A DNA stretch of 64,000 nucleotides from the NCBI RefSeq assembly GCF_054482595.1, contig NZ_CM137008.1. The stretch is one strand, 5' to 3'. Below the pieces are notes generated by a model, which was not told the origin of the DNA, did not search any database, and saw nothing but the letters and a program-made list of their open reading frames with translations. This document shows positions 2,821 to 33,124 of the stretch, piece by piece. The position numbers and the translations under genes were made by a program. The number at the start of each line of letters is the position of its first letter. Position 1 is the first letter of the stretch.

Positions 2821-4043
2821 TGGCACTGTTTTACTATCAGGCGCTGGAGCGTAATGGTCGCAAAACCAAAGGCATGATTGAGGCGGATTCCGCGCGTCAT
2901 GCCCGCCAGTTGTTGCGCGGTAAAGATCTCATTCCCATGCACATTGAAGCCCGGATGAATGCTTCGGCAGGGGGAATGTTGCAGCGTCGGCGACACGCAC
3001 ATCGTCGCGTGGCGTCGGCAGATCTGGCGCTGTTCACGCGCCAACTGGCAACGCTGGTGCAGGCAGCAATGCCGCTGGAAACCTGCTTACAGGCGGTCAG
3101 TGAGCAAAGTGAAAAACTGCATGTAAAAAGCCTCGGAATGGCGCTGCGCAGCCGGATTCAGGAAGGTTACACCCTGTCGGACAGCCTGCGCGAACATCCC
3201 CGCGTCTTTGATTCCCTGTTTTGTTCGATGGTGGCTGCCGGAGAAAAATCCGGGCATCTCGACGTGGTGCTTAATCGCCTGGCGGATTACACCGAACAGC
3301 GACAGCGCCTGAAATCACGTCTATTGCAGGCCATGCTCTATCCGCTGGTTCTGCTGGTGGTGGCAACGGGCGTGGTCACTATTTTGCTGACGGCAGTGGT
3401 GCCGAAAATCATCGAACAGTTCGATCACCTCGGACACGCGCTGCCCGCCACCACCCGCGCGCTTATCGCCATGAGTGACGCGTTACAGGCCAGCGGCGTT
3501 TACTGGCTGGCGGGATTGCTGGCGCTTCTGGTGCTGGGGCAACGGCTACTCAAAAATCCTGTTATGCGCCTGCGCTGGGACAAAACCTTGCTGCGCCTGC
3601 CCGTGACAGGGCGTGTTGCGCGCGGACTGAATACGGCGCGGTTTTCCCGCACCTTAAGCATCCTCACCGCCAGCAGTGTTCCGCTGCTGGAAGGGATTCA
3701 GACCGCTGCCGCCGTGTCGGCAAATCGCTATGTCGAGCAACAACTGCTGCTGGCGGCAGATCGCGTCCGCGAAGGAAGCAGTCTGCGCGCTGCACTGGCG
3801 GAGTTGCACCTGTTCCCACCGATGATGCTGTACATGATCGCCTCCGGCGAACAGAGCGGCGAACTGGAAGCCATGCTTGAGCAGGCAGCGGTCAACCAGG
3901 AACGGGAATTTGATACCCAGGTGGGGCTGGCGTTAGGGCTGTTTGAACCGGCGCTGGTGGTGATGATGGCGGGCGTGGTGCTGTTTATCGTCATCGCCAT
4001 CCTCGAGCCGATGCTGCAACTGAACAATATGGTTGGAATGTAA
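2820..4043 (+). CDS. gspF: T2SS inner-membrane platform protein GspF
   Basis: 407 aa polytopic membrane protein. Its ATG overlaps the gspE stop by 1 nt. The order matches a typical gsp operon. Confidence 0.9.
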   Translation: MALFYYQALERNGRKTKGMIEADSARHARQLLRGKDLIPMHIEARMNASAGGMLQRRRHAHRRVASADLALFTRQLATLVQAAMPLETCLQAVSEQSEKLHVKSLGMALRSRIQEGYTLSDSLREHPRVFDSLFCSMVAAGEKSGHLDVVLNRLADYTEQRQRLKSRLLQAMLYPLVLLVVATGVVTILLTAVVPKIIEQFDHLGHALPATTRALIAMSDALQASGVYWLAGLLALLVLGQRLLKNPVMRLRWDKTLLRLPVTGRVARGLNTARFSRTLSILTASSVPLLEGIQTAAAVSANRYVEQQLLLAADRVREGSSLRAALAELHLFPPMMLYMIASGEQSGELEAMLEQAAVNQEREFDTQVGLALGLFEPALVVMMAGVVLFIVIAILEPMLQLNNMVGM

Positions 4044-5450: not shown

Positions 5451-6052
5451 GAAGGACTCGCGCTGGTTTCACGTTACTGGAAATGCTGGTGGCGATAGCC
5501 ATTTTTGCCTCACTGGCACTGATGGCGCAGCAGGTGACAAACGGCGTCACACGTGTGAATAGTGCCGTCGCCGATCACGATCAAAAACTAAACCTCATGC
5601 AGCAAACGATGAGTTTTCTGACCCACGATCTGACACAAATGATGCCGCGTCCGGTAAGAGGCGATCAGGGCCAGCGTGAATCAGCGTTACTGGCGGGCGC
5701 TGGCGTGCTGGCGTCTGAGAGTGAAGGAATGCGCTTTGTACGCGGCGGCGTGGTTAATCCGTTGATGCGTCTGCCGCGCAGTAATCTGCTCACCGTCGGT
5801 TACCGCATTCATGACGGTTATCTCGAACGGTTAGCCTGGCCGCTGACCGACGCAGCAGGCAGCGTGAAGCCAACAACGCAAAAGTTGATTCCGGCGGATT
5901 CGCTCCGTTTGCAGTTCTACGACGGCACACGCTGGCAGGAGAGCTGGTCATCACTTCAGGCGATCCCAGTGGCGGTACGCATGACCCTGCACTCGCCGCA
6001 ATGGGGCGAGATTGAACGCATCTGGTTGTTACGCGGGCCGCAATTATCATGA
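5447..6052 (+). CDS. gspJ: Minor pseudopilin GspJ
   Basis: GTGA overlap with gspI. N-terminus RAGFTLLEMLVAIAIF. Confidence 0.85.
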   Translation: MRRTRAGFTLLEMLVAIAIFASLALMAQQVTNGVTRVNSAVADHDQKLNLMQQTMSFLTHDLTQMMPRPVRGDQGQRESALLAGAGVLASESEGMRFVRGGVVNPLMRLPRSNLLTVGYRIHDGYLERLAWPLTDAAGSVKPTTQKLIPADSLRLQFYDGTRWQESWSSLQAIPVAVRMTLHSPQWGEIERIWLLRGPQLS

Positions 6053-23896: not shown

Positions 23897-24060
23897 TCAA
23901 TATTGATGCTGTCTGCTTTTCACCATTTCATCCTCACTGACTGATGTTGTATTTTTGTGCAGCACTACAGATTTGCGTTTCTCTTTTAACTGGTCACGCT
24001 CTCCTTTGATATTCAGCGTGGTTGAGTGATGCAGCAGTTGATTCAGGATTGCTGTTGCCC
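23897..24060 (-). pseudogene. IS21-family istB 3' fragment
   Basis: The minus-strand translation AILNQLLHHSTTLNIKGERDQLKEKRK resembles the IstB C-terminus (AILDRLLHH..I.IKGESYRLKEK). The upstream part is out of frame. Confidence 0.45.
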
Positions 24061-24429
24061 TGCAACCACCATATCAACTTCTTCCCGGCATGCCGGCGCT
24101 GGTATCCAGGCCGGGTTTCGAAGTGAAGCGTTCCTGACGGACTCATTGATATCCGGGCCGGATGTAGTCATGCAGCATGGAACGTCTACCCGTATACACT
24201 GACGGCGTCCGGCCGTGTACATCTCTTCCGCGGTTCAGGGAGCGCTGTCGCCATGTACTTATTGTCACCAGGAGAGGCATGTACCGCAGCATGCCAGCTC
24301 AGCAGTGACAGGATGCCCTTAAGACATCCGTCATGGCTCAGTATGACGACGCCCCCGCTCTGCAGGTGAGCATGCGGGGCCGGGAGCAGCATTCCCGTAT
24401 TTTGCCGCACCTTCCGGAAGCAACCGGCA

Positions 24430-25032
24430 TCAGTTACGGTTATCGTCAACCGTTGTGCGGTATGCCAGGAGCACGTACTGATCCATCAGATCCGCCAGTG
24501 CTGCGTTCTGCTTCTGACGGTCGATGATCCATTCCCCCAGCTCTTTTTCTGATTTACGTTTCAGGTTCTCCGTCCAGTCGTCAAGGCTGTTTCCGGTCAT
24601 TAAATCAAGCCAGCAAAGCCAGACCAGTTTGAGGCGCAACTCAGTGCCACCAAACTGACGGAAGAGGCTGATCAGTTTATTTGCCAGAGAACGCCGCCTC
24701 AGACGTTCACATTCAGACAGCAGAATGCCTTCCAGCATCGGATGATGAACCAGCAGATGTTCGCTGGTGCATAAGTTCACCACCAGATCATCATCCAGGG
24801 GCGGCGTGGCCCGTTTGTCAGAGCCATAAATCAGCCGGTGCAGACTCCGGGGGACGATGGCAATCTCCGGTTTTTCACCATTGAATGACACCCACCCGGG
24901 CGTCAGATTATGGAAGTAGTGGATATTCGGATGACATACGCCCCAGGATACGGCGTGCCGGGTGAAGCCGGTCAGCCATTTCTGGTAGCTTTCGTGGAGC
25001 AGCTCGTAACGGGTCTGATACTGTGGTTTCAT
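24430..25032 (-). CDS. Hypothetical island protein downstream of alpA
   Basis: 200 aa from ATG 25032 (AGGA 8 nt upstream). I recognise no family. Confidence 0.5.
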   Translation of the reverse strand: MKPQYQTRYELLHESYQKWLTGFTRHAVSWGVCHPNIHYFHNLTPGWVSFNGEKPEIAIVPRSLHRLIYGSDKRATPPLDDDLVVNLCTSEHLLVHHPMLEGILLSECERLRRRSLANKLISLFRQFGGTELRLKLVWLCWLDLMTGNSLDDWTENLKRKSEKELGEWIIDRQKQNAALADLMDQYVLLAYRTTVDDNRN

Positions 25033-25125
25033 TTTCATATTCCTCACGGGGGATAACAGGCAGCAGAACGCCGCCGGCAGGCCGGAGATTGCGTCTGCTG
25101 TGGGTGAAGGGGCAGTGGTTAAAAA

Positions 25126-25335
25126 TTACGGACGGGACTGTGCAATACGCGCCTGCAGCCAGGCTTCCACTTCACTTTTCAGCCAGCGGGAGCTGCGGCC
25201 AAGTTTGATGGGAGCCGGAAAGGCCCCATCCTTGATGAGCTTGTAAAACCACTTATCGGTCAGGCCGGTCAGCTGAGTGATAAACGCCATATCGACCATC
25301 TGGTCATCCATCAGCGAAACTGGGGGGGGGGTCAT
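25126..25335 (-). CDS. alpA: AlpA-family (prophage CP4-57-type) HTH regulator
   Basis: 69 aa, FITQLTGLTDKWFYKLIKDGAFPAPIKLGRSSRWLKSEVEAWL. SD GGAGGAG lies 6 nt upstream of the ATG. Confidence 0.85.
   Translation of the reverse strand: MTPPPVSLMDDQMVDMAFITQLTGLTDKWFYKLIKDGAFPAPIKLGRSSRWLKSEVEAWLQARIAQSRP
25322..25331 (-). repeat. Homopolymeric C10 (G10 on plus strand) tract in codons 2-5 of alpA
   Basis: Counted directly: ATG ACC CCC CCC CCA GTT. Confidence 0.95.
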
Positions 25336-26409
25336 AAAAATCTCCTCCGGATGTTGTTAATCTCAACCGGCGTTGATGATGAAAACAACGCACCACCTTC
25401 ACCGGCATAACAACCGGGGAGAAACGTAAAAAATCAGTAGGGGAATATTCCTGCCAGGAGAGAAACGGTTGTGTACAGGCAATACAGGTTGTCTGTTTTG
25501 TCAGTGAAGCCGGTATAAACGGAAGATGATTTTGTGTTGCCGGAATATGGGATGGTATTTTGTCGTGACGGAATCAGTATTTTCAGTGATGATTATTACT
25601 GCGCAGGGGAGTACCGGAGAGAAACCACGCCCTGTACCTGCCAGAGCGGTGGTTTGTATTGACTGAACGGAAGATAAAGCGAGGTAAACACTGTTGTGGT
25701 GAGCGGAGAAGACTGAGATTATTCTCTGTAATTACAAACAACAGTGATCTTATCCGGTTTTTTTACCGTTACGGGTTTCAGGGGATCAATTTTATAGACC
25801 GGGGTAATGACCACGCCGTAATTTATGGAGAAAAGCGGGATCCAGCAATAAACGTCAGGATATTTCTGTGTCTCCGGAATACCTTTTGTGCCAGAGGCCA
25901 TCAGATCTTTAACGCTCACGAAAAATGACTTCCGCAGATCAAAAAAGTACTCGTTATATATCACATCCTTTGCCAGCAGGATGACTGCATTACCAACAGC
26001 CGATTTTACAGGTGTTTCATCAGGTGGATTATCGTGATTGTATATTGTTCTTTCTATATAAATAAAACAGGCATATTTCGTCTTCTCCCCGGATAGTTGC
26101 ATCTGGTATTCGCAAATGTCTTTGATATACCGACTTTCAACCCTTCCAATCATCTTATCCCGGCGATAGTGTCTTTTATGTTTCAGCGCGTACAGAACAC
26201 CATTTGAACTGTCAAACTCCAGGACACTTCTGGTGAAAAGTTTGTTTTCCCAGATCTCCAGACAATACTTCTCTGCACTGACGACATTGCGTTTGTGGGG
26301 AAGATTCCGTTGATACACTCCATTTAATAAGCGTGACTGCAGTTCGCCTGCAAGTTGATAGTAACAGTTAATGTCATTAAGGACAGGTGCTGTGGCGTTG
26401 GATTTGCCC

Positions 26410-27315
26410 CTATATTTCCAGACACCTGTTATCACTTAACCCATTACTGGCTTGCTGCCGTAGATATTCCCGTGGCGAGCGATAACCCAGTGCACTATGC
26501 GGATGCCATTCGTTATAATGCTCGAATGCCTCTGCAAGGTTCTTTGCTGCCGTTAACCCGTCTGGTTTGGGCATGACACTGATGTAGTCACGCTTTATCG
26601 TTTTCACGAAGCTCTCTGCTATGCCGTTACTCTCCGGACTCCGCACCGCCGTGTTCTTCGGTTCAAGCCCCAACATCCGGGCAAACTGCCGTGTTTCATT
26701 AGCCCGGTAGCATGAACCATTATCCGTCAGCCACTCTACTGGAGACGCCGGAAGCTCGTTGCCGAAACGGCGTTCCACCGCTCCCAGCATGACGTCCTGT
26801 ACTGTTTCACTGTTGAAGCCGCCCGTAGTGACCGCCCAGTGCAGTGCCTCACGGTCACAGCAGTCCAGCGCGAACGTGACTCGCAGTTTTTCTCCGTTAT
26901 CACAGCGGAACTCGAACCCGTCAGAGCACCATCGCTGATTACTTTCTTTCACAGCCACTCTGCCGGTATGTGCCCGTTTCGATGGCGGTACAGCGGGTTT
27001 TCGCTCAAGCAACAGCGCATTCTGGCGCATGATCCGGTAAATACGTTTGGCATTGATCGCAGGCATACCATCAAGTTCGGCCTGTCTGCGAAGCAGCGCC
27101 CATACCCGACGATAACCATATGTGGGCAGCTCTCCGATAACATGGTGTATACGGAGAAGCACATCCGTATCATCTGAGTGACGGCTGCGGCGACCATCTT
27201 TCCAGTCATCGGTTCGTCTGAGAATGACGTGCAACTGCGCACGCGACACCCGGAGACAACGGCTGACTAAGCTTACTCCCCATCCCCGGGCAATAAGGGC
27301 GCGTGCGCTATCCAC
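26410..27315 (-). CDS. insD: IS2 transposase OrfB (InsD)
   Basis: 301 aa with a DDE integrase core. It matches IS2 InsD as I recall it. Confidence 0.9.
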
Positions 27316-27638
27316 TTTTTTGCACGCCCGTATTCAACGGCTTCTTTAAGGAGTTCATTTTCCATCGTTTTTTTGCCGAGCAGGCGCTGGAGTTCTTTAA
27401 TCTGCTTCATGGCGGCAGCAAGTTCAGAGGCAGGAACGACCTGTTCTCCTGCGGCCACAGCAGTAAGACTTCCCTCCTGGTATTGCTTGCGCCAGAGAAA
27501 TAACTGGCTGGCTGCCACACCGTGTTGCCGGGCAACAAGGGAGACTGTCATTCCCGGTTCAAAACTCTGCTGAACAATAGCGATCTTTTCCTGTGTAGTA
27601 CGCCGTCTGCGTTTCTCCGGTCCTAAGACATCAATCAT
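27273..27638 (-). CDS. insC: IS2 OrfA (InsC)
   Basis: [41 protein letters not shown]..., 121 aa. It overlaps insD as required for -1 frameshifting. Confidence 0.9.
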
Positions 27639-28176
27639 CTGCTCTCCAATGACTAGTCTAAAAACTAGTATTAAGACTATCACTTAAATAAGTGATATTG
27701 GTTGTCTGGAGATTCAGGGGGCCAGTCTAGGCGTTGAGTAATGTGTTGATTACCTTAGAGCGCGAAAGTTTGTGGGTATGACAGTACTCATCCACAATTC
27801 GCAGTGTCTCATCACTGGTCATATTGAAAGTTATACGTGTTGTCATGATGAAGTTTTCTGTTAATCATACTGGTTGATATGCATAACATTTCATAAAAAA
27901 TACTGTTAATTCATATAATTGATTTTTTGACTGGTTTTATCCTCGTGTGGTGGAAAGCAGTATTACTGCCACTGTAGTCAGCATAAATCTATCACACAGA
28001 ACCACCGAAAATGAAGCATTGCTCAGGGGGAAGCTGCCACTCGTATGAGTTCTCTGAACCATGATAACCAGTATTTTTCGTTTTGGGTGATTTGTTTATC
28101 GTTACAGCTACATACAGTTCATGTACCATTAAAAAATAATAAAGGTTAATTAGTATTATTTATAGAAGTATGTTTA

Positions 28177-28254
28177 TGTAATTCTACCGTGTAAATGAAC
28201 CCTGTAATTCTACCTTGTAAATACACCTTGTAACCAAGTCCTGTAGAAGTCTGT
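28177..28254. repeat. Array of six TGTA(A/G) motifs phased at exactly 13 bp (two 26-bp tandem units plus degenerate units)
   Basis: The motif starts at 28177, 28190, 28203, 28216, 28229 and 28242. Segments 28177-28202 and 28203-28228 are identical at 22/26 positions. Confidence 0.85.
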
Positions 28255-29262
28255 CTCATAGAGGTATCTGTGCAGTGATATTCTCTGTAGTAGTACTTGT
28301 AACTCTGTTCTTAACTCTCTCTTCAGTAATGTAGTCCCGCAACACCTGAATATAAATCTGTAATGTTCACACACTGACTGTAACGTGCTTTGTTAAGTAA
28401 TGTCTGCTATTTTTTTTCTGTTATTTTTCCTGTTGTTTTCTGTATTTTGTTGTATGGTGTAATAACTATTCTGAACCCGTCATCACCTTTATAGCTAAGA
28501 GTATGACTTCGCCAGTGTTGATACTGTGGATAACGGTGATTAAGGAATTACTGTTAATGATCTGTTCCTGCAGCTCACCTGATGAGTTTTGGTAGTAATA
28601 CGTAAAAGAGTATGCCTCATGTCATTAAAAAGTCTTCCGGAGTGTTGTTTAACCCTGTACCTCTGTTACTCATGTAGTACGTTGCGGAAAGCTACGTTAA
28701 TTGTAATATCTGGTTATGGCGTTATGCCTTCAGTATTAAAAACATCTTTTACCGGAGAAACTGGGAAGTGGAAAGGCTTTCGGGATAACGTCAGGCCATT
28801 ATGACGATATTACGTTAATCACAGTACAAGATAACGAGAGGGTAATGGAATTTTAAACCAGAGTAGTTCCACTGTTGTTCACTGGAAAAAGTGATTTCCC
28901 ACGCGCGTTATAAGCTTACTCCAGAGGAGATGGAAGCCTTCAACTCTGCGGTCGATCACCGGCTGGCAGAACTGACCATGAACAAACTTTACGATCGTGT
29001 TCCCGCTTCAGTCTGGAAATATGTTACCTGATAAATGTTTCTGATGAAGTACAGTCGTCACAATGACATCACTTCAGATATTATCTGCGCTGTGATTGAC
29101 TGTCACGTATGCCGTTCTCTGTATGGTTCTGATACCCGGGTGTGGTCCCACTTTCTCTGTGGCGCCCGGGGAGTTGTGAACCTGCACGTCTTCGTGTGAT
29201 AACGTTTTCTTCAAAAATTACGCCAGCGCTTCTTCCTGTGTTACAGAACACGAGGAAGAAAC

Positions 29263-29862
29263 ATGAAGACTTACAACACCAATCCCGGTTACGAAATGGA
29301 TCCCCAGCTCCTGACACACTTTAACCAGCATCTGGATTCATTATTCGGGGTATATTCGAAACTGTTACCGTTCAGAATGGATTTTGCTTACCGAAAAAAC
29401 ACCCTCAGCTACAGATGTGCCTGCAGGTACGCCATGTGCGCGGAGATACTGCGACTGATTAACGAAGTGGGAGAGAAACTGGTCGGGTATGCCTGGGTAA
29501 TGGAATATACGGAACGTAAAGGGCTTCACATTCATTTTGTGGGCTATCTGAACGGTCAGAGCCACAGGAGTTCGTATCTGGTATCCAGATTGATGGGAGA
29601 TATCTGGAGGCGGGTTACCGGGGGTGATGGTTACTACCACTGGTGCCGGTTTAATAAAAATTATCCGGTAAACATTAACCACGTCATTCACTATTCAGAT
29701 CACAAAGCGGTGAATGCCTTACGCTATGCCCTCAGCTACCTGGCCAAACGAGAACAGAAAGAATGTGGCATCATCCTGAAATGCAGCGGGCTTCCTGAAA
29801 AAAGTAACCGGGGTCGACCGCGACTGGGCAGCACCCTGCCGGAGACTTATTCTCTGGTGTAA
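29263..29862 (+). CDS. YagK/YfjJ-family (inovirus Gp2-like) protein
   Basis: 199 aa. LLPFRMDFAY, YAWVMEYTERKGLHIHFVGYLNG and LRYALSYLAKREQK parallel the K-12 YagK motif order. Confidence 0.7.
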   Translation: MKTYNTNPGYEMDPQLLTHFNQHLDSLFGVYSKLLPFRMDFAYRKNTLSYRCACRYAMCAEILRLINEVGEKLVGYAWVMEYTERKGLHIHFVGYLNGQSHRSSYLVSRLMGDIWRRVTGGDGYYHWCRFNKNYPVNINHVIHYSDHKAVNALRYALSYLAKREQKECGIILKCSGLPEKSNRGRPRLGSTLPETYSLV

Positions 29863-30227
29863 GACCCTGAACGACAACTACGGGCTGGCGCTAATTGTTA
29901 CGGTCGGTTCCGGAGGCCACTTCAGGGACTCTGCGCATTTTTTACGACATGGCTATTCCGTATGAACCATACGGAGATTTAACCATGGCACATTCTTTAC
30001 CATTCCTTCCGGCAACCGATACAGCGCATCCTCCGATGTCCATCCCTGCCTGCTGACAGTTTTTTACGCCGGTGGGCCATTGTGTGACAACCACAGTGCT
30101 GTAACAGCAACCAGCCTGCTTTACCCAAACTCCAGTCCAGATTTTAACTGAACCGCCATTCACACCCTGACCACACTGCCCGTACCGGGACAGCTGTTGC
30201 CTGCGTGTCGTCTGGCTGCTGAGGAAT

Positions 30228-30617
30228 ATGACGATGTACGCAAAATCCTTTATTGCATTTGATGGCAACGGGCGTCTGACGGGTGCCCGTACCGCACAGA
30301 CTGCACCTTACGATCGCTACACTTGCCACCTTTGCGGCAGTGCGCTCAGATACCACCCGCAATACGACACTGAGCGTCCCTGGTTTGAACACACTGACAA
30401 CGGGCTGACGGAGCACGGTCAGCAGTGCCCTTATGTCAGACCGGAACGCAGGGAGATACAACTGATTAAGCGTTTGCAGCAATTCGTACCGGATGCCTTA
30501 CCCGTGGTGCGTAAAGCCAGCCGGCACTGCAGACAATGTCATCACGATTATTATGGGGAGCGGTACTGCACGCACAGCCATACCGGGCACTTCAGTGAGG
30601 AGGGGGTGGCAGAATGA
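30228..30617 (+). CDS. Zn-ribbon protein (CxxC...WFEH...CxxC)
   Basis: 129 aa with CHLC...PWFEH and HCRQCHHDYYGERYC. Its stop overlaps the next gene's ATG (ATGA). Confidence 0.6.
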   Translation: MTMYAKSFIAFDGNGRLTGARTAQTAPYDRYTCHLCGSALRYHPQYDTERPWFEHTDNGLTEHGQQCPYVRPERREIQLIKRLQQFVPDALPVVRKASRHCRQCHHDYYGERYCTHSHTGHFSEEGVAE

Positions 30618-31039
30618 ACGGTATAAAAACGGGGCTGGGGATCACGCCGGGTGAACACATTATCAGTGCTGATTCTGCGCTCAGCAGAAATATCCGGCAG
30701 TGTTTCTGCCTTTCCTGTCATGGCCGGTTGATTTTGCAGACAGATGCTCAGGGGGCGTGGTTTGAGCACGATTTACATGTCCTGAGCGAGCAACAGAAGG
30801 CAGCCTGCGTGGTGCTGAATCCGGAAAAGTCCCACCCTTACATTGAGGATATGGAGATGTTTTTATCGCCATTACCGGTCGTGCTGGAGTGGCATTGTGT
30901 GATGTGTGAGCAGTTTTTTCATGGGAAGAAATTCTGTGAGGCCTGTGGTACGGGGATTTATTGCAGAGCGGTATGTACGAAGTCTGTTTACAGCTACCAG
31001 CCAGACTTGTTTCAGGACTGCGGAGGTGCGAGTACTTAA
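30614..31039 (+). CDS. Zn-ribbon protein, paralogue of the preceding gene
   Basis: 141 aa with CLSC...AWFEH and CVMCEQFFHGKKFCEAC. Translationally coupled to the upstream gene. Confidence 0.6.
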   Translation: MNGIKTGLGITPGEHIISADSALSRNIRQCFCLSCHGRLILQTDAQGAWFEHDLHVLSEQQKAACVVLNPEKSHPYIEDMEMFLSPLPVVLEWHCVMCEQFFHGKKFCEACGTGIYCRAVCTKSVYSYQPDLFQDCGGAST

Positions 31040-31191
31040 TCCGAAATCTCCGCTCTGCGCAGGGCGTTCAGAGATATCGCAACCTGCATTTTATCCGGTG
31101 TTTCGCACCTGCCCCGTTCGTGACACAAAGGCGTGACACCGGATATCCGCAGTCCTGCTTACCTGAATAAAACCCGGGGTATTGATTGTGT

Positions 31192-31246
31192 ACTGTGGTG
31201 CGAAATCGCACCGTGATCGCGGATTCGCCGAATCCGCACTGTGGTG
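31192..31246. repeat. Two adjacent hairpins flanked by 9-bp direct repeat ACTGTGGTG
   Basis: GTGCGAaaTCGCAC (31198-31211) and GCGGATTCgccGAATCCGC (31219-31237). The direct repeats are at 31192-31200 and 31238-31246. Confidence 0.6.
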
Positions 31247-31510
31247 TCAACCAACCATACGCGAGAGTCCTCTCCGTATTTATCAGTGCCTCAGGACGAT
31301 TTCTGCATAGTTAATCCAGGGGGCTGCATTGTTTATTTCCCTGCTAATGGATGTGACATCCAGGATATTCATGATCCTGATTTCCCTGAGCAGTATCAGC
31401 GCTTATTGGCACGTCTGGATTATCTGACGAAGCCCGATGCTAAAGCATCAGGTCAGCGTAACTCTGGCTACAGCGGTTTTTGACCTGTTGTAACTGTAAG
31501 GTGATTTATT

Positions 31511-32077
31511 ATGTATACAGAATCAAACGTTAAGCTTTCCTGTAACGCCCTCTGGCAAAAGTGTGTCCTTGCAACTCTGTATCGGGCTGCAGCCACACAT
31601 CCTGAAATTAAATTATTACAATTTAAATTAATACCAGGACAGGGTATTAATAAGGCCATTCCCTCTCTGATGGCTGATTTTACTGGTGAACTGCATAGAC
31701 TCATTTCTGAATATTTGCAGTGTAAGCGACGTAAAGATAAATCTGTTGAGCCCACCCCTTTATATTATCTCTGGAGTAGGGAGGCTGTGGCTAACGATAC
31801 CACTCCTTATCTTATGGTGCTGCTACTTAATAACGATGTCTGGTGTAAGAGTCGTGAGGTGGTGGTTCTCAGAAATCTGATTGAGCAGGCGTGGGGAAAA
31901 GTATTGGGTGAAGATAACTCCATTACACATCTGGTTGTGTATCCTGAAGTGCTGTCGTTGGTATTTGATGCAGCTAACACATACAACGCTGAGCCTGGTG
32001 TACTGGAACAGACGGCCCAGGCTTACATTGAATCGCATGGTGCCATTGAACGTCATCTTGGGTGTAGTGACTTTTAA
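31511..32077 (+). CDS. YagK/YfjJ-family (inovirus Gp2-like) protein, second paralogue
   Basis: 188 aa. HPEIKLLQFKLIPGQG, LYYLWSREAV...PYLMVLLLNND follow the same motif order as the family. Confidence 0.55.
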   Translation: MYTESNVKLSCNALWQKCVLATLYRAAATHPEIKLLQFKLIPGQGINKAIPSLMADFTGELHRLISEYLQCKRRKDKSVEPTPLYYLWSREAVANDTTPYLMVLLLNNDVWCKSREVVVLRNLIEQAWGKVLGEDNSITHLVVYPEVLSLVFDAANTYNAEPGVLEQTAQAYIESHGAIERHLGCSDF

Positions 32078-32422
32078 CGTCAGGTGATGCATAAGGGCCT
32101 TTCGCTGAGAGGCCCTGTTTACACAATTAAATAAATCGAGCCCGACCAACAATTTTGATGTTAACAGCAGGATTATTGAGGGGCAATCAATGTGTTCTTC
32201 GGTAGCGATTACGGTAGTGAACGGACCTGCTGTCTGAATGGCATCGATCCGCAAGCGTATCGGCGCCATATTCTGAGCGTACTACTGAAATGGCTAATGG
32301 CAGTAAAGAGAGACTTTACGTATATTTGCATAAAGCAGGATTTTACGACTAGTCAACATTCTTTATAATTCTTCAGGTTCAGAGTATCTGACATATAGGG
32401 TTATGTATTGGGGAGACATTTA

Positions 32423-33124
32423 ATGTTTGGCCATCTGTTACGATACTTTAGTTTCTGTAAAAAAGATTTATTAGTATTTCATCCTGAATCTGATTACTCA
32501 GATAATTTACATAAAGCCTTCTCTTTTACAAAAAGGCTAGGATTTAATGAAGAATGGAATGGGGTCACAAAAAACAAAGAATATGATTATCAGGATGTCT
32601 TCAGTCATGTCTGTCTGCAGTCTGGTGTGACAGACTTTTCCGCTTCAGCAGGACAATGCTTAAAGTGGAGTCATTATTTTCAGCCATATTTTGAGAATAT
32701 CCTTGAATGTCGGGTATGGGTTACCGTTGGACAACTCTGGAAACAGGAACGATTTATTTACAATCCGTCAGTTGCGGATTTTCAGCGCTGGTCTGAAAAA
32801 GGGATTCAGCCTGAAGATTTTAGACATCACTCGGGGTTTAACTTTCATGCGTGGTTGACGACGGAAAATGGTGTGATTGTGGATGTTTCCTTTATGAGTA
32901 CGTTATCGCGGCGATTACCTGAACACCTGAGTGAAGTCAGTGGAAGTGTGATTATTGGCACGCCAGAGACGGTTCTTCCTGAGTATAAATATGTTCCCAT
33001 GATTGTCGGTCAGAGGATTGTTGAGAAAATAGAAAAACGCTCTTTCATTGGTTTTCTGGCGCACGACGATATTGATTTATATACAGTACCTGCAATCTTG
33101 GTTCCGGTATGGAAAGAATGTTAA
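32423..33124 (+). CDS. Orphan protein with possible papain/transglutaminase-like Cys-His-Asp signature
   Basis: ATG 32423 follows GGGGAG; the track TTG 32408 is less likely. Contains SAGQCLKWSHYF ... FNFHAWLTTENGVIVDVSF. AT-rich. Confidence 0.5.
   Translation: MFGHLLRYFSFCKKDLLVFHPESDYSDNLHKAFSFTKRLGFNEEWNGVTKNKEYDYQDVFSHVCLQSGVTDFSASAGQCLKWSHYFQPYFENILECRVWVTVGQLWKQERFIYNPSVADFQRWSEKGIQPEDFRHHSGFNFHAWLTTENGVIVDVSFMSTLSRRLPEHLSEVSGSVIIGTPETVLPEYKYVPMIVGQRIVEKIEKRSFIGFLAHDDIDLYTVPAILVPVWKEC

Follow-up and report, generated by a model that had tools for sequence, protein, structure and literature searches.

In PICI and PIME islands, short iterons adjoin an AT-rich region beside a replication gene, and the canonical place of the origin is immediately 3' of that gene (PMC6092414; bioRxiv 10.64898/2026.01.12.698999). 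RelB, a repressor of the ribbon-helix-helix (RHH) type, reads hexads of the form [A/T]TGT[A/C]A (PMC2812701). Pathogenic E. coli carry the island-borne Hha paralogues hha2 and hha3 (PMC4864382, PMC6480617), and islands of this kind have been reported as H-NS/Hha-repressed (PMC6480617). Here we analyse a spacer with short direct repeats in an E. coli genomic island, covered by a 64,000-nt stretch of contig NZ_CM137008.1 (assembly GCF_054482595.1), which we call the window and whose positions are used throughout. The repeats form an array of phased TGTA motifs directly downstream of a conserved AT-rich box. To their left stands a PF27701/UCP007319 gene that encodes a protein with an RHH-like N-terminus, and 1.0 kb to their right lies a Rep-like gene of the Gp2 type, as an earlier reading of the same letters (the original prediction) had proposed. 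Judged from its conservation, the box is the cis-element that truly goes with the Gp2-type genes (HUH, Rep-like) of enterobacterial islands of the AlpA type. Our reading of the array is more tentative, with a probability of roughly 0.38: it may be a dispensable, lineage-specific block of protein-binding-type direct repeats appended to the Gp2-associated box. We lean slightly towards this protein-binding role over a neutral minisatellite. A canonical iteron origin is unsupported, and the gene pair does not require the array.

The six units of the array read, in order, TGTAATTCTACCG, TGTAAATGAACCC, TGTAATTCTACCT, TGTAAATACACCT, TGTAACCAAGTCC and TGTAGAAGTCTGT. TGTA[AG] starts every 13 nt exactly, at 28177, 28190, 28203, 28216, 28229 and 28242, whereas no more than three motifs in a row kept this 13-nt phase when the 1-kb region was shuffled 2000 times with its dinucleotides preserved. 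Tandem Repeats Finder (TRF) reported a 26-nt period in 2.2 copies (87% matches, score 86) and a 13-nt period in 3.7 copies at 28177-28233, and the 26-mers at 28177 and 28203 are 85% identical (22/26). The unit consensus is ACC-N-TGTAA followed by a 4-nt variable spacer. When the five unit types were compared, only positions 1-4 (TGTA) were invariant at a mean pairwise identity of 55%, and four contiguous invariant columns have a P of about 0.014 under a uniform-rate star model. The unit motif does not occur elsewhere in the window. Further TGTA copies, dispersed and unphased, follow the array on the same strand: 28247-28400 contains five TGTA[AG] motifs against 1.6 expected from dinucleotide-preserving shuffles (P = 0.012), and 27847-28845 contains 15 on the plus strand and 2 on the minus strand. 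In the allele alignment the dispersed copies are about as conserved as their surroundings. The original prediction had listed the six phased motifs, the two 26-bp tandem units, a T-rich repeat tract and the dispersed copies at 28286, 28298, 28359 and 28379. All of these are confirmed; we add one copy at 28330, and the T-rich tract proves to be an 11-12-nt repeat.

Table 1. Positions of the features discussed, in window coordinates unless a locus is named.
Feature	Position	Strand	Basis
5' fragment of PF27701/UCP007319 gene, about 39 codons, RHH-like N-terminus	27731-27846	-	tblastn
Conserved TGTTAATCATA...TGCATAAC block beside UCP007319 start	27857-27894		no change among E. coli alleles
AT-rich box: core AGGTTAATTAGTATTAT at 28143-28159, extended ...TTTATAGAAGTAT	28141-28171	+	conservation across lineages
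Direct repeats ATAGAAGTAT (28162-28171) and ATAGAGGTAT (28258-28267), bracketing array	28162-28267	+	read from sequence
TGTA array, six 13-nt units	28177-28254	+	repeat detection, chance test
Dispersed unphased (C/T/A)TGTA(A/G) copies at 28286, 28298, 28330, 28359, 28379	28286-28383	+	motif count
T-tract repeat, 11-12-nt period, allele-specific	28412-28448	+	TRF
Perfect DnaA-box 9-mer (TTATCCACA)	28525-28533	-	only perfect copy in 64-kb window
hha2/hha3-type Hha/YmoA gene, truncated	28845-29031	+	annotation of identical/near-identical records, alignment
Gp2-type gene leader: AAAAATTAC motif and hairpin 29230-29240 / 29249-29260	29213-29262	+	alignment, RNAalifold
Gp2-type (YagK/YfjJ-related) gene, 199 aa, intact	29263-29862	+	PGAP product name
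Sister-lineage hypervariable GT-rich repeat	L154 4265-4290; same position in L033, L127, L062, L030, L124, L163		+11 after box

The box belongs to an AT-rich stretch (28125-28171) that directly abuts the array, the first TGTA unit starting 5 nt past the box end (28171) and 18 nt past the core. It is single-copy in the window even with three mismatches allowed. The box occurs in 2102 of 5426 E. coli genomes (39%) and is never annotated. Of the 25 box-bearing loci examined, 23 have a single copy that lies 126-1120 nt upstream of a Gp2-type gene and in the same orientation, across proteins that are 42-100% identical; the contigs of the other two (L095, L140) are too short to reach that gene. Loci fetched by the 17-mer carry it by construction, and the unbiased ones are L154, L159, L161, L163, L164 and the PF27701-derived loci. 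A Hafnia locus that was fetched via a 38%-identical protein instead of the box also has a recognisable box variant, and the variant ACATTTGGGTTTTTAGTATAATTA is invariant among Citrobacter, Klebsiella and Pectobacterium. In the loci compared, it is the box and not the array that travels with the Gp2-type genes. The box contains TATTAT (TATAAT in other genera) and has no -35 element. Its core TAGTATTAT somewhat resembles the nanovirus/circovirus nonanucleotide as well as the nick region of M13, but these likenesses were rejected as post hoc or too weak, and no hairpin accompanies the core. Half-site resemblances to TyrR, CpxR, ArcA and LexA were dropped for wrong spacing or orientation. In 13 lineages, T/G-rich words are strongly strand-skewed over the 300 nt that follow the box (ATGTT 15:0, TTATG 26:2, TCTGT 21:4, GTAAT 21:3), and the sense strand of the ORF-free (open reading frame-free) leader is T-rich in every lineage.

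If the array binds protein, slippage would have expanded it in the spacer just downstream of the box. The box would serve as a control site of the rightward hha/Gp2 unit, either close to a promoter or as a melting site like that of an origin, or in both ways, and the phased units would offer a variable number of candidate sites to a DNA binder encoded by the island. The leading candidate binder would be the RHH-like N-terminus of the divergent PF27701 protein, followed by the Gp2-type protein. Binding could then repress, or organise a protein array over, the start of the hha/Gp2 unit. The array is real and non-random, with an invariant TGTA core, extra copies on the same strand and a fixed place after the box, all of which is consistent with this proposal. 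Likewise, a sister lineage also holds short repeats after its box, and the HUH and YxxK motifs of the Gp2-type protein are kept. The RelB hexads and the iterons of PICI and PIME islands lend it support by analogy.

Several findings weigh against a binding role, among them the variability of the array. Nine annotated loci were aligned and supplemented with about 40 metagenome copies of the region, obtained by an exact-word scan with a 17-mer next to the array. The roughly 50 E. coli/metagenome loci comprise 25 alleles with 0 to ~13 units, and the nine-locus alignment already includes unit gains, unit losses and one complete array deletion. Variation in number affects the A/B units on the left (TGTAATTCTACC / TGTAAATGAACC), whereas C-D-E on the right are fixed, with cores often mutated to CGTA, TATA or TGCA. 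Sub-expansions of 8 nt (TGTAATTC) or 6 nt (CTACCT) break the 13-nt phase in some alleles. Among the array-less alleles, L006, L037 and L067 keep both bracketing repeats 4 nt apart and L122 keeps one copy, so that these alleles look like deletions between the bracketing direct repeats. The PF27701 gene and hha are intact in all four, and the Gp2-type gene is also intact in L122. As a set of head-to-tail units whose number is polymorphic among strains, the array is, by sequence comparison, a hypervariable variable-number tandem repeat (VNTR) restricted to one E. coli island lineage. In addition, the statistic for conservation of the core is a modest one, and its test came after the repeat register had already been noticed.

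The comparison with other lineages points the same way. The PF27701 family is narrow, and its gene and a Gp2-like gene point away from each other in Citrobacter, Kluyvera, Klebsiella, Hafnia, Cedecea, one further enterobacterium and Pectobacterium. No TGTA array occurs in the 369-387-bp spacers of the six other genera in which the spacer is intact, and all other lineages with the box and gene pair have neither an array nor a significant tandem repeat in their spacers of about 300-390 bp. No TGTA motif was found near the PF27701 gene's own promoter in any genus. The conserved element beside this gene in other genera is TGTTAATCATA and not TGTA sites; operator sites thus do not accompany the putative regulator gene in the spacers of the six genera. 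Homology to the E. coli spacer is detectable in other genera only at its two ends, and about 1.1 kb of the E. coli spacer, array and hha included, is therefore lineage-specific. The original prediction had named lack of conservation beside homologous genes as part of what would refute it, and such a lack is largely what we find: besides the 0 to ~13 units within E. coli and the absence from other genera, Enterobacter among them, the array is missing upstream of K-12 yfjJ, K-12 yagK and the window's second paralogue, and from the E. coli lineage of a 63%-identical Gp2-type paralogue.

This sister lineage, which also occurs in O157:H7 (L164), has the order alpA-yfjI(DUF3987)-gap-Gp2. Its gap is 800-970 nt long, ORF-free and immediately 3' of yfjI, and shares with the window a single 45-nt stretch, the sequence immediately left of the array. 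Short GT-rich repeats lie at +11 after its box, for example GTTATGTTATCT x2, and GTGGTGGTAT occurs x3 versus x2 in close relatives, the one clear copy-number difference. Between sister sub-lineages the GT-rich segment is fully different, with flanks and Gp2-type protein about 90% identical. The hypervariable segment is replaced altogether between Gp2-type proteins that are still 89-96% identical, and therefore the repeats are unlikely to encode the binding specificity of that protein. In a shuffle test, tandem repeats after the box were strong in the main lineage, weak in the yfjI type (P 0.005-0.08) and not significant in compact lineages; the proposition that tandem repeats follow the box in every lineage was rejected, significance being confined to the main lineage. 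The other candidate binder is also problematic. The only RHH hint in the PF27701 protein is that its residues 6-33 match NCBIfam aCcr1, an RHH family, with E = 0.0025, which falls well short of the cut-off, and no Pfam RHH family matched. Its AlphaFold model (pLDDT 43, helices at 12-25 and 29-38) is of low confidence and unusable, and a PDB profile search with the protein returned no match.

Many of these observations are what would be expected of a neutral minisatellite, in which slippage or unequal recombination of the 13/26-nt unit, in the AT-rich, H-NS/Hha-silenced non-coding spacer of a decaying island, would create an array of no sequence-specific function that at most changes spacing. 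We regard this as a serious possibility, still short of even odds. The extreme copy-number polymorphism with complete loss, the 8- and 6-nt sub-expansions, and the homogeneous, variable A/B centre between fixed, degenerate end units all agree with it, and the array deletions are accounted for by the flanking 10-nt direct repeats. It also agrees with the lack of an array in any other lineage, the intact flanking genes of array-less alleles and the position of the window copy in a module with two pseudogenes, as does the report that islands of this kind are H-NS/Hha-repressed (PMC6480617). The TGTA excess may be due in part to base composition, since past the box many k-mers rich in T and G favour one strand in every lineage. 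However, neutrality does not readily explain an invariant contiguous TGTA core against about 50% divergence in the rest of the unit (P about 0.014), a same-strand TGTA excess that holds against dinucleotide-preserving shuffles, or an unrelated hypervariable repeat at the same box-relative position in the sister lineage. It is quite improbable that the array is instead a stack of leftward sigma-70-like promoters, giving a long-leader PF27701 transcript or an antisense RNA at a dosage set by unit number. On the minus strand each A/B unit pair does read (A/G)TTACA-N16-TAGAAT, and four overlapping sites within the array and at its edge (28234, 28208, 28195, 28182; each 9/12) contribute to 11 sites in the region against 4.5 expected; but AT-rich DNA often gives 9/12 matches, the PF27701 start has a conserved -10-like element of its own beside it in all genera, neither a terminator nor a conserved leader structure was found, and other lineages lack the array. 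The least credible reading is action as RNA, either as a structured non-coding RNA, as the original prediction had allowed, or with the six YC-containing 13-nt units as a Rho-loading (rut-like) site in an untranslated leader. C exceeds G over 28200-28500 (GC skew -0.14), 6 x 13 nt = 78 nt matches the size of a classical Rho site, and the region is ORF-free with UAA triplets that rotate through all three frames as read from the sequence. Yet the conserved part of the unit is TGTA and not a YC dimer, and copy number is unconstrained. A scan of 24000-33000 against Rfam 15 gave no match at E <= 1, and a sliding RNAalifold scan of 27950-28800 over 18 alleles gave weak energies, mostly within those of shuffles, and no convincing structure on either strand.

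A replication origin in the strict sense is unlikely, though less so than promoters or RNA. The box would be the melting or nick site and the TGTA units iterons for the Gp2-type HUH protein or for a YfjI/DUF3987 primase-helicase-like initiator, an arrangement like that of oriV in PICIs and PIMEs, or of the plus-strand origin that inoviruses have upstream of gene II. We give the same low credence to the broader idea that box and lineage-specific repeats form the replication (or transfer) origin of a widespread AlpA-type island family with a miniature 190-200-aa HUH initiator, with or without YfjI. A conserved box with adjoining lineage-specific repeats follows iteron logic, and the six units (28177-28254) exceed the three direct repeats of one family that iterons call for. 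The sister-lineage box sits in the ORF-free gap immediately 3' of yfjI, and the Gp2-type protein keeps the HUH and catalytic-Tyr (YxxK) motifs of a rolling-circle initiator, as sequence motifs only. To the right of the array, at a distance of 270 nt, lies a perfect DnaA box, the only one in 64 kb; this one site was noted post hoc, and most E. coli alleles keep it, whereas L005 has it mutated. On the far side of the AT-rich box, the core motif occurs once in inverted, conserved form (GTTACAG, 28101-28107). The nick position of the M13 plus-strand origin is about 225 nt upstream of gene II, and the box of compact relatives lies at an M13-like distance, 126-200 nt upstream of the gene. However, a phasing of 13/26 bp does not correspond to whole helical turns, and the 8-/6-nt insertions of some alleles disturb a one-face arrangement further; classical plasmid iterons are phased at about 11 or 22 bp. 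No lineage has a hairpin at or near the box, DNA folds around it in four lineages giving z -0.7 to +0.7, whereas the M13 origin has an 8-bp GC-containing stem, and neither box nor array has meaningful similarity to the M13 origin region. Compact lineages keep box and gene with repeats absent or not significant. The repeats neither persist nor co-vary with the Gp2-type protein across other genera and paralogue lineages, no yfjI stands beside the box in the window, and the array is dispensable and hypervariable. The original prediction's reading of the array as an iteron origin is not supported. If the broader idea held all the same, the TGTA units would be the iterons of this lineage, copy-number polymorphism would reflect tolerance or tuning of initiator loading, and cryptic CP4-57/PAI-type (pathogenicity island-type) modules in ~39% of E. 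coli genomes would carry an unrecognised origin type.

The gene left of the array belongs to PF27701 by precomputed Pfam assignment and is split by an IS2 copy (~26400-27730), which was identified from its InsC/InsD ORFs and the IS2 end sequence; the remainder of the gene lies at 25722-26399. With the intact 263-aa homologue of L003 as tblastn query, residues 1-43 align to 27846-27715 and residues 38-263 to 26399-25722. The original prediction, which gave an RHH-fusion gene with its start at 27846, had overlooked the disruption. Further insertion sequences (IS) lie in the spacer of other strains (IS3-family in L001 and L009, IS2 in L016/L017), and the region is therefore an IS hot spot. The conserved block beside the gene start is the only left-end stretch alignable with the Citrobacter and Pectobacterium spacers, and is probably the -10/5' untranslated region of the PF27701 gene (minus-strand TATGAT). 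Three of the window's four copies of CTGTTAAT lie in the spacer on the same strand (27858, 27903, 28551), and the first (27858) overlaps this -10-like element.

On the right, the Gp2-type protein has the HUH motif LHIHFVGYL (HIH) and the YxxK motif SYLAK (YLAK). In an alignment of sequence motifs, both are common to Gp2-type relatives from other genera, K-12 YfjJ and YagK. The window's second YagK/YfjJ paralogue (31511-32077) has lost the HUH histidines (TPYLMVLLL). The Pfam matches, REP_ORF2-G2P at 5.5e-5 and YagK_YfjJ_C at 1.3e-4, are both below gathering scores. A PDB profile search with the Gp2-type alignment gave no match, and the PHROGs match is to a family of unknown function only. [quoted passage not shown] Its hairpin, preceded by a conserved AAAAAT(T)AC motif, sequesters the Shine-Dalgarno sequence and keeps five of seven predicted pairs through changes on both sides (RNAalifold, 8 lineages), which suggests translational control of the Rep-like gene. 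In Citrobacter and Klebsiella, an inverted repeat lies ~60-100 nt upstream of the Gp2-like start (L011 ~5690-5730, L019 ~3690-3730). Both of its arms change, from CACGATA...TATCGTG in Citrobacter to CACAGTA...TACTGTG in Klebsiella, and it could be either an RNA or single-stranded DNA hairpin or a palindromic operator.

Between box and Gp2-type gene stands the hha gene, in the window a remnant. Its ATG at 28845 runs into a stop after 3 codons, caused by 14-nt and 12-nt deletions. The PGAP coding sequence covers 49 aa at 28882-29031, and with the first ~21-24 residues gone the HHA domain is not full-length. Strain 536 has the full-length 70-aa gene (Pfam HHA 7e-27, NCBIfam Hha 1e-30), a form that is identical in many loci (WP_000453335.1); in other alleles hha is either intact (70 aa) or wholly deleted, as in L005, L091 and L125. 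The 170 nt upstream of hha (28697-28866) match an IncHI plasmid, and this match covers nothing more of the spacer. With IS2 inside the PF27701 gene and only part of hha left, the module in the window is, from its sequence, decaying. The original prediction had called 27847-29262 ORF-poor, and 28589-28804 is indeed its sole ORF of at least 60 codons, but the region includes the hha remnant. This remnant, the IS2 disruption and the conserved box immediately upstream of the array had all been missed; overall the observation is confirmed and its interpretation partly supported.

The module that surrounds the spacer consists leftward of a ~190-203-aa hypothetical gene, AlpA and the 263-aa PF27701/UCP007319 protein, and rightward, past ~1 kb of non-coding DNA, of hha, the Gp2-type gene, two DUF7828/zinc-ribbon genes and a YagK/YfjJ gene. 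The non-coding stretch proper is 27847-28844, with a GC content of 0.33-0.39 over 27800-28500. A 1.7-kb query was matched partially in 2333 of the 5426 complete E. coli genomes and over the greater part of its length in 653. Its 1034-nt non-coding core, which is never annotated, has matches of 75-100% identity in 753 of the 5426. Three plasmid records match the spacer, two of them chromosome-like copies. No phage match was found for 27930-28850, and PADLOC gave no defence-system match for seven neighbouring proteins.

Two ORFs in the spacer were ruled out as genes, the 71-aa ORF at 28589-28804 by non-3n indels that break its frame in relatives, and a 54-aa minus-strand ORF across the array by non-3n indels or VNTR changes between alleles. 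The poly-G run at 28025-28029, the second slippage-prone tract of the spacer, varies from G4 to G7 across alleles inside an otherwise strongly conserved block, AGAAAATGAAGCATTGCTCAGGGGG; coding through it was rejected, the frames shifting between alleles. A 13-codon minus-strand ORF at 27978-28019 (MLHFLWFCVIDLC), translated by eye, keeps its start, length and stop in three alleles, one of which is L112 (MLHFLCFFMIDSY), among the two most divergent. It has no convincing Shine-Dalgarno sequence, and its conservation may simply reflect the conserved DNA block. The T-runs of the allele-specific tract are helically phased, and the tract is likely intrinsically bent. The tract is replaced by unrelated sequence in L003, L004, L006-L008 and L010.

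As a bare repeat, the array is an ordinary strain-variable intergenic VNTR that might serve as a typing marker for islands of this type. We rate the box, the Shine-Dalgarno-sequestering hairpin and the retained HUH/Tyr motifs as more valuable leads. The architecture is noteworthy in that a 17-25-nt box is kept across Gp2-type genes only about 40% identical, with the island's hha paralogue inserted between box and gene. Should the box turn out to be an origin, or an operator of key importance, it would open a way to study the control or past replication of AlpA/YfjI/YfjJ-type modules, which are very common 'cryptic' parts of E. coli pathogenicity islands.

Among known systems, the gene within the 'ORF-poor' region is the island paralogue known as hha2/hha3, although the window copy is reduced to a 46-49-aa C-terminal remnant; the upstream spacer, box and array are not described in the hha2/hha3 papers (PMC4864382, PMC6480617). 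The array resembles bacterial intergenic VNTRs or minisatellites in its head-to-tail units of strain-variable number, its homogeneous variable centre with degenerate fixed ends, and its loss via recombination between short flanking direct repeats. It differs from them in a contiguous invariant 4-nt core that survives among diverged unit types and in its fixed position beside a deeply conserved box. Compared with RelB/relO operators (PMC2812701), the core (C/T)TGTA(A/G) fits the hexad, the short subsites recur at about one-turn spacing (13 bp), a resemblance only, and the adjoining gene product has a weakly indicated RHH-like N-terminus. In relO, however, hexads occur twice per strand in 12-bp palindromic half-sites that tolerate no spacing change (PMC2812701), whereas the array consists of direct repeats, 0-13 in number and spaced by 13 bp. 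Nor is the PF27701 protein a RelB homologue, and no such sites lie beside its gene in other genera. We group the tandem subsites of omega, ParR and MetJ in the same RHH-operator comparison.

Unlike the inovirus (Ff) plus-strand origin, the box lacks a hairpin such as the M13 GAGTCCAC...GTGGACTC and shares no sequence similarity with it, and the Gp2-type protein has 199 aa against about 410 aa in gpII, with Pfam matches below threshold. Like that origin, the box lies upstream of and co-oriented with a gene annotated as inovirus-type Gp2 whose HUH/YxxK motifs are kept, with the repeats 3' of the box and then an AT/T-rich stretch; the order in Ff is nick, gpII-binding repeats, enhancer. The locus differs from PICI/PIME/SaPI origins in that no replication gene precedes the element in the window, one clear repeat set is present rather than two flanking the AT-rich region, and the repeats are hypervariable and dispensable in one lineage, with compact relatives having the box without repeats. 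It agrees with those origins in lying in an AlpA-type island as an ORF-free, conserved AT-rich segment whose flanking short direct repeats are not the same from lineage to lineage, and in its sister-lineage location immediately 3' of the DUF3987 (YfjI) gene.

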